Origin: Candidatus Aenigmatarchaeota archaeon | GTDB taxonomy: Archaea > Aenigmatarchaeota > Aenigmatarchaeia > CG10238-14 | Direction: 5' to 3' | DNA length: 64,000 nt | NCBI GenBank assembly: GCA_044343545.1 | Contig: JAWBZR010000002.1 | Span: 3,522-67,521, forward strand | Shown here: in pieces, positions 3,051-51,121 of the stretch | How positions within the stretch are numbered: position 1 is the stretch's first letter | Layout of the letters: each line of letters starts with the position of its first letter | Program-made: the position numbers and the translations under genes | The notes under the pieces: generated by a model | Told to the model about the DNA's origin: nothing | What the model saw: only the letters and a program-made list of their open reading frames with translations | Database searches by the model: none

Positions 3051-3818
3051 TCACAACATCTTCCTAATTTCCTTCGCTTTTTTAATGGCCAAATCAATCA
3101 TATCATCAACATTTTTAATACTTAAAGCTTTTATTCCACCTTTCTGCATAGAGCAAATGTAATTATCTTCTCTAATCCCTATGCTCAGCCATGCATCAGC
3201 CACTTCTTCCTCTTCTCTATTCAAATCTATAAGATATTTATCCATAATTTTTGATATAGTTACGGTTATTGGTGTGTGTAAAATAGGCAATTTTCCCGAA
3301 TATTCGCCTCTAAATATCTTATCATTCTCGTATTTTGGTATTTTAGTATTCATTAACGCAGCAACCGATGCGAGAGACGAGGCATCGAAAAGGTTGCCGT
3401 CATGATTTATTATGTGTATATCAATATAAACACCCCAAACTTTTTGTCCTTCTACTATGCACAACTTTTCCAAATCAATACATTTAGATTCTCTTATTCC
3501 TCTATCAACAACTCTTGCAAGCTCCGTTGCATCTTCAGATGGAGGGCCAGGTAAAAATTCCGGATGAGCTATGGGTGCAAATTCTGCATGAGTTTTTAAA
3601 ACACCTTCATTCGGCATGTCAGGAAAGGGCGTTTCTATTTCCATTTTTATGCCAGCAATAACGTCAGTCTTTCCTATTTTAACCCTTGCCGAGCCTTCAG
3701 CTTTTTCGATAACATCTCTTTCTATCTCTATTTTTCTAAACTCGTCTAATTTTCTTCCATCTATTCTTTCATTTTTTTCTATCAATTTTAGGATATATTG
3801 AGATCGAAGCATAATCAC
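3051..3818 (-). CDS. rrp42: Exosome complex component Rrp42 (non-catalytic RNase PH-like)
   Basis: 255-aa RNase PH fold. Last gene of the Rrp4-Rrp41-Rrp42 triplet. Overlaps the rrp41 stop. Confidence 0.8.
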   Translation of the reverse strand: MIMLRSQYILKLIEKNERIDGRKLDEFRKIEIERDVIEKAEGSARVKIGKTDVIAGIKMEIETPFPDMPNEGVLKTHAEFAPIAHPEFLPGPPSEDATELARVVDRGIRESKCIDLEKLCIVEGQKVWGVYIDIHIINHDGNLFDASSLASVAALMNTKIPKYENDKIFRGEYSGKLPILHTPITVTISKIMDKYLIDLNREEEEVADAWLSIGIREDNYICSMQKGGIKALSIKNVDDMIDLAIKKAKEIRKML

Positions 3819-42332: not shown

Positions 42333-42448
<116 letters not shown>

Positions 42449-42833: not shown

Positions 42834-42948
42834 ATCCCCCCGGCCGGATTTGAACCAGCAACCCTTCGGTTTCTGACGAGCATACGCCGGTGACGAATGC
42901 TTTTAGCAAACGTCTACAGCCGAATGCTCTACCGTTGAGCTACGGGGG
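42834..42948 (-). tRNA. tRNA-Tyr (anticodon GUA) with an intron of about 43 nt at the canonical position
   Basis: Reverse complement: CCCCCCG TA GCTC AACGGTA GAGC A TTCGG CTGTAG[A CGTTTGCTAAAAGCATTCGTCACCGGCGTATGCTCGTCAGAA]A CCGAA GGGTT GCTGG TTCAAAT CCGGC CGGGGGG A. The C1:G72 pair is the archaeal Tyr identity element. Confidence 0.8.
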
Positions 42949-43000
42949 GTCATAATTACAATAATCAATTTAATTAAAATATTTTAACCATATAATTTTT

Positions 43001-47840: not shown

Positions 47841-49709
47841 CTATCCTATGAAAACAGGTCTTTTTGAAAGCATCATAGGTAATGTTAATTCTTTAAATGG
47901 TTTTCCTTTTGTCGCTTCTTTTATTTCGCTTATCAAGCTTTCAAGGCTCATTTTTTCTTCAAAACTTTTAACACCTCTCTTTCTCACATTAAATATTCCG
48001 CTCTCTCTTTCTTTCTTGCCTATGACAAGAATGTATGGAACCCATTCAATTTCCGCATCTCTTATTTTCTTTTCTATTCTTTCGTTTCTATCATCTATAT
48101 CCACTCTTATGCTATTTTCTTCAAATTTTTTGGCAAGTTCTTTACAATATTCTATATAATCATCGTTTATAGGACACAATCTTACTTGAGTTGGACAAAG
48201 CCATAAAGGCAAGCGTGGATTTTCTCCCTTTTGAGAAGCGATATAAGCCTTTTCAAGCATTGCATATAAACATCTTTCTAAACTTCCGGATGGAGAACAG
48301 TGTAAGATGTACGGATGTTTCTTCTTTCCATCTTCATCAACGTATTCTATTCCAAATCTTTTAGCATTTTCATGATCTATTTGAACTGTCGTGAGAGCAG
48401 ATGCTTTGTTCATGGAATCTATGAAGTTGAATTCAAATTTTGGATCAAAATATGCGTATCTAAAATTCCACATTTCTATAAGCACTGGTTTATTCACAAG
48501 CTTTACTAATGAAATTATGAAATCTTTGTTTTCTTTCCAAAAATCTTTTGTAAATCTAATGGCAACTTCAAAATCGTCTATGGAAAATTCTATATCTTTC
48601 AATGTTTCGATTCCCAACTTGAATTGATTGTAAAATTCTTGTTTGGCTGTGTCTAAATCTTTGCAGAGTGTATGCATATCAGGCATAGTGAATGCTCTTA
48701 ATCTTCTCAAACCAACAAGCTCTCCTGATTTTTCAAGTCTAAAAGAATATCTCGTTAGCTCGAAAAATTTAAGTGGCAAATCTTTGTGAGAGATATTAGA
48801 TGCTGCTAATGTCAAGAATTGTCCGAAGCAAGCTGCAAATCTGAGGAAAAACTTTCTTTTCGCAGATTCAAGTGTATATTGTCTCGCAGGAAATCTATTT
48901 AGATATTCTTTCAATGCAGGATGCTCATAATCATACATTATTGGTGTTTCTACTTCCATAGCACCATACTTTATTACTTTTTGTGTAATCCACATTTCCA
49001 TGAGACTTTTTATTAATCTTCCTTTGGGTAAAAATCTGAAATTTCCAGGGTCAGAACCTGGCTCGTAATCTACAAGTTCCAAAGATTTCATTATCTTTAC
49101 ATGAGGCGGTATGATAGAAACACCTCTAACTTTGGCATACTCATATTCAAAGAATTTTTTTAGATTTTCATGATCTTTATAATCAAATTCTTTTGCATCT
49201 ATCAGTTCGCCTTTTGGTGTCAATATATACCATTCAGATTTCACCTTTTCCTCCTGCTGTAAAGCTTGTGAAATTTCTTCTTTAACTTCTTTAACTTCCT
49301 CCGCTGTAAAAACTTTTAGTTGCTCTGCTAAGGGATGTGCCTTTATTTTTAATTGAAATTGCTTGTTCCATCCAAAAGGTGCTCTGTAAACTTCCAGACC
49401 CTCTTTCTTTGCAAAATCTTCCATTTTTCTTATTATTTCAAGAGCCTCTGAAGGTTTAGCTAAATTTGAACTTAGATGCGCATAAGGGTATATCAAAATT
49501 TTGTTCACTTTTATTGTTTTTAAAGATTCGTTTATTTGCTTTATCGCATGCTTAGCTAAAGATTCATTATCACCTTCTTCTACGGCAACAAAAAGAACTA
49601 CAACATCTTCAATTCTCACTAATTTTTTTTCTATCTTTTCTGCGATAGCTATTTCTCTTTCTATAGGCAAGTATTCTATGAAATCTACGTGTTGTTGCAA
49701 TATTCTCAT
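47841..49709 (-). CDS. thrS: Threonyl-tRNA synthetase (archaeal type with N-terminal editing domain)
   Basis: Class II core (…HCSPSGSLERCLYAMLE…) and archaeal-specific N-terminal domain. 622 aa. Confidence 0.9.
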   Translation of the reverse strand: MRILQQHVDFIEYLPIEREIAIAEKIEKKLVRIEDVVVLFVAVEEGDNESLAKHAIKQINESLKTIKVNKILIYPYAHLSSNLAKPSEALEIIRKMEDFAKKEGLEVYRAPFGWNKQFQLKIKAHPLAEQLKVFTAEEVKEVKEEISQALQQEEKVKSEWYILTPKGELIDAKEFDYKDHENLKKFFEYEYAKVRGVSIIPPHVKIMKSLELVDYEPGSDPGNFRFLPKGRLIKSLMEMWITQKVIKYGAMEVETPIMYDYEHPALKEYLNRFPARQYTLESAKRKFFLRFAACFGQFLTLAASNISHKDLPLKFFELTRYSFRLEKSGELVGLRRLRAFTMPDMHTLCKDLDTAKQEFYNQFKLGIETLKDIEFSIDDFEVAIRFTKDFWKENKDFIISLVKLVNKPVLIEMWNFRYAYFDPKFEFNFIDSMNKASALTTVQIDHENAKRFGIEYVDEDGKKKHPYILHCSPSGSLERCLYAMLEKAYIASQKGENPRLPLWLCPTQVRLCPINDDYIEYCKELAKKFEENSIRVDIDDRNERIEKKIRDAEIEWVPYILVIGKKERESGIFNVRKRGVKSFEEKMSLESLISEIKEATKGKPFKELTLPMMLSKRPVFIG

Positions 49710-50029
49710 AAACTCCCCTCATTATTTTTTATTTCAATAGATTTAAATTTCATACTAAATGCCATTTTTTGCAAAAACATCTTTTCTAAAAAATTTTGTC
49801 TCCCAAGACCCTTTTTTGAAATAACAACTTTTACGCCAAAATCTTTTATCCATTCATGTTTCGAATAAAGCTTTTCAGGTAAACTAATTAATCTTAACTG
49901 GGGGCATTTGTTTAGAATTTCTTTTAATAGTTTTTTACTTGCAAATTTTCTTAAATGAACTATTCGAGTTTCTTTGTTAAGTTTTGAAATATCAGAATAG
50001 CTAGAAATAGAGACTTGTTTGGCATTCAC
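49706..50029 (-). CDS. Hypothetical protein immediately upstream of and overlapping thrS
   Basis: 107-aa ORF with a 4-nt overlap with the thrS start. Confidence 0.3.
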   Translation of the reverse strand: MNAKQVSISSYSDISKLNKETRIVHLRKFASKKLLKEILNKCPQLRLISLPEKLYSKHEWIKDFGVKVVISKKGLGRQNFLEKMFLQKMAFSMKFKSIEIKNNEGSL

Positions 50030-50576: not shown

Positions 50577-50643
50577 TAATTATAAAATTATGTTTTTTGT
50601 GTGAAGAAAATATTTATAGCAAAAAAATGAAATTAATGAATTT

Positions 50644-50958
50644 ATGAACGTACAATTTGTAGGTTTTGACAAGTTTTCTTCCGAAATAAAAGATGATGTA
50701 AAAAAACAGTGTGATAGGCTTTTAGATAAATGCAAGAGGATTTTTGATGAAAAACATATAAAAACTCTAAAACTTTCGGTAGATAAGCTGAGAAAAAGAG
50801 GAGATCATACATTATTTGAGGTTAAGTGTTATCTTGAAGCGGGGAACAACTTGTTTTATGCTTCACATAGTGATTGGAATATATTGGATGCAGTAGAAAG
50901 GGTAGTTGAAGATATTTTGAAGCAAGTTATAAAGAAAAAGGAGATGCACGAAAGATGA
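50644..50958 (+). CDS. Ribosome hibernation factor-like protein (HPF/RaiA/YfiA, S30AE family)
   Basis: Aligns position by position with bacterial HPF: MNVQFVGFDKF.SEIKDDVKKQCDRLLDK.KRIFDEK.IKTLKLSV...TLFEVKCYLEAGNNLFYASHSDWNILDAVERVVEDILKQVIKKKE versus MQLNITGNNVEITEALREFV..KFAKLEQYFDRI..VYVVLKVEK...[40 protein letters not shown]. Confidence 0.5.
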   Translation: MNVQFVGFDKFSSEIKDDVKKQCDRLLDKCKRIFDEKHIKTLKLSVDKLRKRGDHTLFEVKCYLEAGNNLFYASHSDWNILDAVERVVEDILKQVIKKKEMHER

Positions 50959-50995
50959 ATTTTTAAAATTTCACAAAAATCTTATATTTATTAAT

Positions 50996-51086
50996 AGCCC
51001 CGTCGTCTAGATGGCTTTGCCAGGATAACGGTCAAGGATAGCGGGCTTTGGACCCGTTGACAGCGGTTCGAATCCGCTCGGGGCTA
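50996..51086 (+). tRNA. tRNA-Gln (anticodon UUG) with an insertion (intron) of about 19 nt in the D-arm
   Basis: AGCCCCG TC GTCT AGATGGCTTTGCCAGGATAACGGTCAA GGAT A GCGGG CTTTGGA CCCGT TGAC AGCGG TTCGAAT CCGCT CGGGGCT A. The A1:U72 pair and 3' half match archaeal tRNA-Gln. The 5' half is 19 nt too long. Confidence 0.7.
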
Positions 51087-51121
51087 TAAAATCAAATAGA
51101 TTAATATTTACTCTATTTTTT

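Follow-up and report, generated by a model that had tools for sequence, protein, structure and literature searches.

Do archaea possess ribosome hibernation factors of the HPF/RaiA kind, and if one is found in a small archaeal genome, what is it and where does it come from? The question is raised by a 104-amino acid (aa) open reading frame (ORF) on contig JAWBZR010000002.1 (assembly GCA_044343545.1), which belongs to a metagenome-assembled genome (MAG) of Candidatus Aenigmatarchaeota, a DPANN archaeon. The 64,000-nucleotide (nt) stretch analyzed, positions 3,522 to 67,521 of the contig, is called the window here. An earlier note on this DNA had taken the ORF product for a bacterial-type, possibly horizontally acquired ribosome-silencing factor in a domain of life generally held to lack such proteins. 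The reality of the gene, the fold of its product and its closest relatives are established here. It is likely that the gene encodes a stand-alone, archaeal-type HPF/RaiA-like protein, which would most likely act by steric block of the mRNA/tRNA channel of the small ribosomal subunit; its binding, site of action and physiological role we infer from homology.

Is the ORF a gene at all? It runs from an ATG to a TGA at exactly the coordinates first proposed for it (Table 1), and an identical protein, labelled "hypothetical protein" (QXO84_00995), is encoded in an Aenigmatarchaeota MAG at NCBI. Six further homologs share 67–74% identity with the window protein, one of them named RaiA by JGI, and 48 positions, including the start methionine (7/7), are invariant in an alignment of seven close homologs. 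Comparison of two homologous copies gave a ratio of nonsynonymous to synonymous substitution rates (dN/dS) of 0.08; between the window copy and the homologous copies, dS is saturated and dN is 0.19. The gene order around the ORF is the same in three further Aenigmatarchaeota contigs, whose HPF-like copies are about 70% identical, and the gene, at 31.7% GC, differs little from the window as a whole (34.0%). Because of the identical and close homologs, the shared gene order, the low dN/dS and the near-window GC content, the ORF is a real gene that has been vertically inherited under selection. The probability that it is a chance open frame in AT-rich DNA, with a coincidental resemblance to HPF, is practically nil: apart from a Pfam score slightly under the gathering threshold, everything speaks against it, namely the conserved homologs and synteny, the dN/dS of 0.08, a confident structural model and uniform matches in structure searches (see below). 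A spurious ORF is thus ruled out by conservation.

What does the protein look like? From the seven-sequence alignment, AlphaFold2 gave a model with a mean predicted local distance difference test (pLDDT) score of 90.9 and a predicted template modeling (pTM) score of 0.83. Its elements, strand 2–6, helix 13–34, strands 39–52, 55–66 and 69–77, and helix 80–103, follow the order beta-alpha-beta-beta-beta-alpha, and the model is superposable on solved HPF/RaiA structures. In a Foldseek search of PDB, ranks 1–32 are occupied without exception by HPF, RaiA/YfiA/pY, plastid PSRP1 or RafH (E-values down to 5.4e-6; TM-scores of 0.55–0.79). On this model, the S30AE/HPF fold proposed in the earlier note is not in doubt. 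Since HPF-family proteins come out first in the structure searches and the sequence profiles match S30AE/HPF only, identity as a double-stranded RNA-binding domain (dsRBD) was rejected; a dsRBD as best structural match, together with a match to a dsRBD sequence profile, was not obtained.

The sequence signal is fainter than the structural one. The sole Pfam match in the protein is PF02482 (Ribosomal_S30AE). It reaches 23.0 bits (E=1.3e-4), where the gathering score is 23.7, and covers profile positions 9–85 of 88; related family members score 20–28 bits, on both sides of the cutoff. This HMMER comparison had been proposed as a check, and the absence of a PF02482 signal together with an unrelated fold had been named as grounds for giving up the assignment; what was found is a signal slightly under the gathering score and structural matches to the HPF family. 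The match to TIGR00741, the HPF/YfiA equivalog profile, reaches 21.2 bits against a cutoff of 40.9, and on this score the protein does not belong among bacterial-type HPF/YfiA equivalogs. When the single sequence was searched against PDB, Vibrio cholerae HPF was the best match (E=0.034), along with two chance matches, which is not decisive alone. BLASTP against Escherichia coli HPF (from NC_000913) gave an 87-residue match (21% identity, 7 gap positions; pairwise E of 0.004), and against E. coli RaiA/YfiA nothing significant (E=1.5). An alignment "residue for residue" with E. coli HPF/YfiA was therefore an overstatement: a weak similarity to HPF stands, that to YfiA does not. Annotation pipelines have met the same family, as a 53%-identical Aenigmatarchaeota homolog is named "HPF/RaiA family ribosome-associated protein" by NCBI and two other homologs are annotated as RaiA by JGI.

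To which branch of the HPF family does the protein belong? The view that Archaea lack HPF is outdated. HPF domains occur widely among Archaea, in most cases as part of a fusion with a CBS module, in proteins called HibA or AHA (PMC13324472, PMC12934967). HibA is found in 47% of archaeal genomes (PMC13324472; Madru et al., Nat Commun 2026), and about 8% of archaea, mostly DPANN and Nitrososphaerales, have stand-alone HPF/RaiA-like proteins, according to a study whose genome list includes Aenigmatarchaeota (PMC13324472). The AHA preprint counts 926 stand-alone HPF homologs from 814 archaeal species of 12 phyla (PMC12934967). Among PDB sequences, the best match of a profile made from the seven close homologs was, without gaps, to residues 286–375 of 9sr9_H, a 392-aa chain deposited as "Dehydrogenase"; according to the data-availability statement of the HibA paper, 9sr9 is HibA of Pyrococcus abyssi (PMC13324472). 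The same profile, run with HMMER over 1.84 billion representative proteins, retrieved 33 proteins at E<=1e-3. Most of them are stand-alone proteins of 97–144 aa (two are shorter, 53 and 88 aa), while six are 364–384 aa long and are matched at their extreme C-terminus. All six long proteins carry CBS domains, and in four of the six PF02482 is also matched at the C-terminus, which is the HibA/AHA architecture. One of these CBS-HPF fusions adjoins genes that are archaeal markers, encoding a TFS-type zinc-ribbon protein and STT3/AglB.

A hidden Markov model of the HibA-type domain was built from seven segments, the C-terminal domains of the six fusions and the corresponding P. abyssi HibA segment. 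The window protein scored 72.1 bits against it, E. coli HPF 20.7 and RaiA 15.1, a contrast somewhat inflated by the choice of the six fusions for their similarity to the window family. Length differences point the same way. In a joint alignment, the window protein, other stand-alones and CBS-fused domains have in common 3 extra residues in the beta1-alpha1 loop and 6–7 extra residues in the sheet; both are absent from E. coli HPF and RaiA. For the longer difference existence alone is claimed, as its location depends on the aligner (the beta2-beta3 hairpin in MAFFT, beta3-beta4 in BLASTP and HMMER). The two insertions fit the two specific insertions described for the archaeal HPF domain (PMC13324472). 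Furthermore, in all three groups a conserved tryptophan (W78) precedes helix alpha2, where the E. coli proteins have D-M-Y.

Several points weigh against assigning the protein to archaeal HPF/RaiA-like ribosome-silencing factors, in addition to the selection of the fusions just mentioned, through which the 72-bit score overstates closeness to HibA in general. P. abyssi HibA alone gives only 17.7 bits, the PF02482 score lies slightly under the Pfam gathering score and the TIGR00741 score far under its cutoff, and the overall charge of the protein is only mildly basic (isoelectric point, 8.75; 22 lysines and arginines vs. 19 aspartates and glutamates). Published work on stand-alone archaeal HPF-like proteins has so far been confined to cataloguing them. 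[quoted passage not shown] Nothing essential differs, except that the window protein is called "hypothetical" in NCBI. Its archaeal residence is attested by the identical protein in the Aenigmatarchaeota MAG and by the archaeal genes around it, and the lack of a CBS module in the same polypeptide by its 104-aa length with PF02482 only, the conserved start methionine and a divergent upstream gene.

Comparison with better-studied factors delimits what the protein can be. HibA/AHA, such as P. abyssi PAB0961 (PDB 9SR9–9SRF) and Haloferax volcanii HVO_2384, has a homologous HPF domain behind an N-terminal four-CBS module; the window protein is a homolog of the C-terminal domain only, hence it should have no AMP/ATP sensing, no loop in the peptidyl transferase center (PTC), and should take up none of the three positions on the large subunit described for HibA. 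In bacteria, short HPF (YhbH) and RaiA/YfiA/pY are likewise single-domain proteins, of similar size and with a beta-alpha-beta-beta-beta-alpha fold, and a faint similarity to E. coli and V. cholerae HPF can be detected; identity in structural alignments is only 10–23%, however, and the window protein has the extra residues in the beta1-alpha1 loop and sheet hairpins while lacking the acidic C-terminal tail of RaiA. RMF, the partner of bacterial HPF, has been searched for in Archaea with few or no matches (PMC13324472). The long HPF (lHPF) of Firmicutes, Actinobacteria and Thermus shares the fold in its N-terminal domain and adds a C-terminal dimerization domain (PF16321); the window protein stops one residue past alpha2, at residue 104, and formation of 100S particles in that way is not expected.

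Two sequence features divide the stand-alone proteins among themselves. All seven close Aenigmatarchaeota homologs have cysteines C23 (helix alpha1) and C62 (strand beta3), and the window protein has a further cysteine, C30. Neither C23 nor C62 occurs in distant stand-alone members of the family, in HibA-type domains or in E. coli HPF and RaiA; the two might be joined in a disulfide or make up a redox or metal site. Many distant stand-alone homologs (P0009, P0010, P0017, P0019, P0020, P0022, and P0023), on the other hand, carry a short conserved tail after alpha2, with a pattern of roughly [RK]-x(1,2)-P-[AD]-N-[VPA] at the C-terminal end (e.g., KLPANV, ETPANP, APANP, YPDNA, HPDNV, and LPYNA). 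The window protein and its close relatives are without this P-[AD]-N tail.

How might such a minimal protein work? Cryo-electron microscopy has placed the HPF domains of HibA and AHA in the same 30S mRNA/tRNA channel that bacterial HPF occupies (PMC13324472, PMC12934967), and this presumably is the site of the window protein as well. There the HibA C-terminal domain touches h18, h31, h34 and h44. By homology, the window protein would occupy the A and P sites of the small-subunit channel and touch 16S rRNA with basic residues of both helices and of the long beta2-beta3 hairpin. The close family has invariant basic residues in these elements: R25, K29, and K31; K48, R50, and R52; R86, K98, and K99. 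tRNA and mRNA would be sterically excluded, and idle ribosomes would be spared degradation in starvation or when the DPANN cell is off its host. As the protein has neither a CBS module nor the additional lHPF domain, it would not sense adenylates (AMP/ATP), would not reach the PTC, uL5 or L1-stalk positions of HibA, and would not form 100S particles by known routes. A ribosome-silencing role, as first suggested, remains the best functional guess by homology, and control is probably exerted at the level of expression.

The missing module could in principle be supplied in trans, so that a split HibA, consisting of the HPF-like protein and a separate CBS protein, would provide adenylate sensing and/or large-subunit contacts. 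The same window does encode a stand-alone CBS-pair protein (Table 1), and dormant archaeal ribosomes have been seen to carry stand-alone CBS modules (PMC13324472). But this ORF lies 50 kb away and has one CBS pair instead of the four-CBS module of HibA, so that no link is claimed; the HibA, HPF/RaiA-like and hibernation-linked CBS-module families tend toward mutual exclusion (PMC13324472), and CBS pairs are common regulatory domains with many roles. A tblastn search of the window with HibA-type CBS modules gave only weak matches (E of at least 0.029), which led to the CBS-pair ORF, and no HibA was found in the window. We consider a split HibA improbable, and return to an HPF-like protein acting on its own.

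Where does the gene come from? The label "bacterial-type" does not fit a protein that is far closer to the fused HPF domains of archaeal CBS-HPF proteins than to their E. coli counterparts HPF and RaiA. Recent acquisition of a bacterial HPF/RaiA gene by this archaeal lineage could be argued from the fold and the Pfam and TIGRFAM matches, which belong to families defined mostly on bacteria, and from the early Bacteria-to-Archaea transfer that has been favored for the archaeal HPF domain as a whole (PMC13324472). It is nonetheless very unlikely. The nearest relatives are archaeal stand-alones and archaeal CBS-HPF fusions, the protein has the HibA-type insertions that E. coli HPF and RaiA are without, the order of genes from the ligase to the CCA-adding enzyme is kept across Aenigmatarchaeota with proteins about 70% identical, and the GC content is unexceptional. 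Published work, too, shows two domain-specific clades without intermixing (PMC12934967). Relatives, insertions, synteny and composition thus largely refute a recent bacterial transfer, and with it the proposed horizontal acquisition; a transfer from Bacteria, if there was one, would have to date from the archaeal root or from earlier times.

The deeper history is seen differently by the two published studies. In one of them, stand-alone archaeal proteins are generally nested in HibA clades, implying loss of CBS, besides the preference for early transfer mentioned above (PMC13324472). In the other, archaeal HPF is argued to have existed in the last common ancestor of archaea and probably in the last universal common ancestor (LUCA) (PMC12934967). 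In our neighbor-joining tree (101 columns, 200 bootstraps), the window protein falls in a purely stand-alone clade of nine sequences with 86% bootstrap support, which is not nested in the sampled fusions, and elsewhere stand-alone and CBS-fused forms are interleaved; sampling is small and biased and the domain short, and the tree is too weak to settle the history. There is perhaps an outside chance that DPANN stand-alones descend from an unfused ancestral archaeal HPF, which joined a CBS module to make HibA, and are not remnants of CBS loss. If so, one would see in the 104-aa protein a minimal archaeal hibernation factor and the way the domain functioned prior to its coupling to energy sensing, with consequences for the question whether HPF-mediated hibernation is as old as LUCA.

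The surroundings of the gene are clearly archaeal. The window encodes RNA polymerase subunits Rpb5 and Rpb2, an ATP-dependent DNA ligase, TrmB, threonyl-tRNA synthetase (ThrRS), Elp3, the CCA-adding enzyme and diphthamide synthase. The local order is ligase, TrmB, thrS, the ORF with a DUF1699 match, a 146-aa membrane protein, the HPF-like gene, a methyltransferase, a TtuA-like PP-loop protein, Elp3 and the CCA-adding enzyme. One of the related loci, L004, deviates: the DUF1699 ORF was not called there, and an extra 376-aa gene is found between the HPF-like gene and the methyltransferase. A search for related loci with the close-homolog alignment added only two more, both from Aenigmatarchaeota. 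The HPF-like gene had been placed alone between a membrane protein and tRNA-Gln, and indeed a hydrophobic ORF on the minus strand lies upstream, divergent from it across a spacer of 67 nt, and tRNA-Gln(UUG) lies directly downstream. It had also been described as downstream of thrS; thrS is nearby, but it is on the minus strand and divergent, not upstream in the same direction. The features are collected in Table 1.

Table 1. Genes and sequence elements of the window referred to in the text.
Feature	Position in window	Strand	Remarks
Stand-alone CBS-pair protein, 126 aa	466..849	-	PF00571, E=6e-22
5S rRNA	42334..42448		Adjoins the 115-nt tRNA
tRNA, 115 nt	42835..42949	-	Rfam, 56.7 bits; not reported by ARAGORN
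thrS	47841..49709	-	ThrRS with archaeal editing domain
107-aa ORF	49706..50029	-	Sub-threshold DUF1699 match (32.2 vs. 33.4 bits); overlaps thrS start by 4 nt
Hydrophobic ORF, 146–153 aa	Upstream of HPF-like gene	-	No Pfam match
TTTATA, TATA-box-like element	50613..50618	+	Read from sequence; center about 28 nt upstream of ATG
Stand-alone archaeal HPF/RaiA-like protein (likely assignment), 104 aa	50644..50958	+	ATG-to-TGA coding sequence; S30AE fold; no CBS module, no long-HPF C-terminal domain
T-rich tract, ATTTTTAAAATTTC	50959..50972	+	Read from sequence; directly after stop codon
tRNA-Gln(UUG), 91 nt	about 50997..51087	+	Rfam, 29.4 bits; missed by ARAGORN

Signals flanking the gene hint at how it is transcribed. 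The TATA-box-like element upstream has counterparts, TTTATA or TTTTAT, in two homologous loci (L004 and L005), where they lie upstream at equal distance. Its spacing suggests a leaderless or near-leaderless transcript, which is suggestive only, since the genome is AT-rich. The T-rich tract is a possible candidate for an archaeal oligo-T terminator, which would make the gene monocistronic. Together, the two elements suggest a monocistronic leaderless transcript whose regulation would probably be transcriptional. Given the location of the gene among tRNA and tRNA-modification genes, and a weaker resemblance of the fold to dsRBD, one may ask whether the fold has been reused for binding other RNA off the decoding channel, e.g., double-stranded RNA or tRNA. 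This also seems improbable, because the sequence profiles match S30AE/HPF only and the neighboring genes are on separate transcription units or on the opposite strand; the preferred reading remains a factor that would act in the decoding channel.

Other features of the neighborhood deserve mention in their own right. The pairing of the DUF1699-like ORF with thrS recurs in loci L005 and L006 and is absent from L004; this ORF may be a small partner of archaeal thrS or its leader gene. The D-loop of the tRNA-Gln(UUG) gene is enlarged by an insertion of about 17 nt near ATGGCTTTGCCAGGATAA (about 51011–51028), and removal of 15–20 nt at this place restores a normal tRNA-Gln call. In the syntenic tRNA gene of L005 (8367..8461), the 3′ 62 nt are 98% identical, and the extra segment apparently lies between tRNA positions 9 and 10. 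From their sequences, these extra segments look like non-canonical tRNA introns at shifting positions. The 115-nt tRNA on the minus strand is presumably another intron-containing tRNA.

The textbook view was overturned by archaeal HPF-fold hibernation factors only in 2025–26, and here such a factor was met independently from raw sequence. The gene is a new, currently unannotated member of the already catalogued archaeal stand-alone HPF/RaiA-like class, and as such no longer unexpected. Its value is modest at the level of this gene, where a function is suggested for a protein annotated "hypothetical". It marks Aenigmatarchaeota, small-genome and probably host-dependent DPANN archaea, as carriers of the minimal, CBS-less form. 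The 12-kDa protein would be a convenient reagent for asking whether the HPF domain alone silences and protects archaeal ribosomes, what the CBS module adds in HibA/AHA, and how reduced symbionts maintain their ribosomes while off the host.
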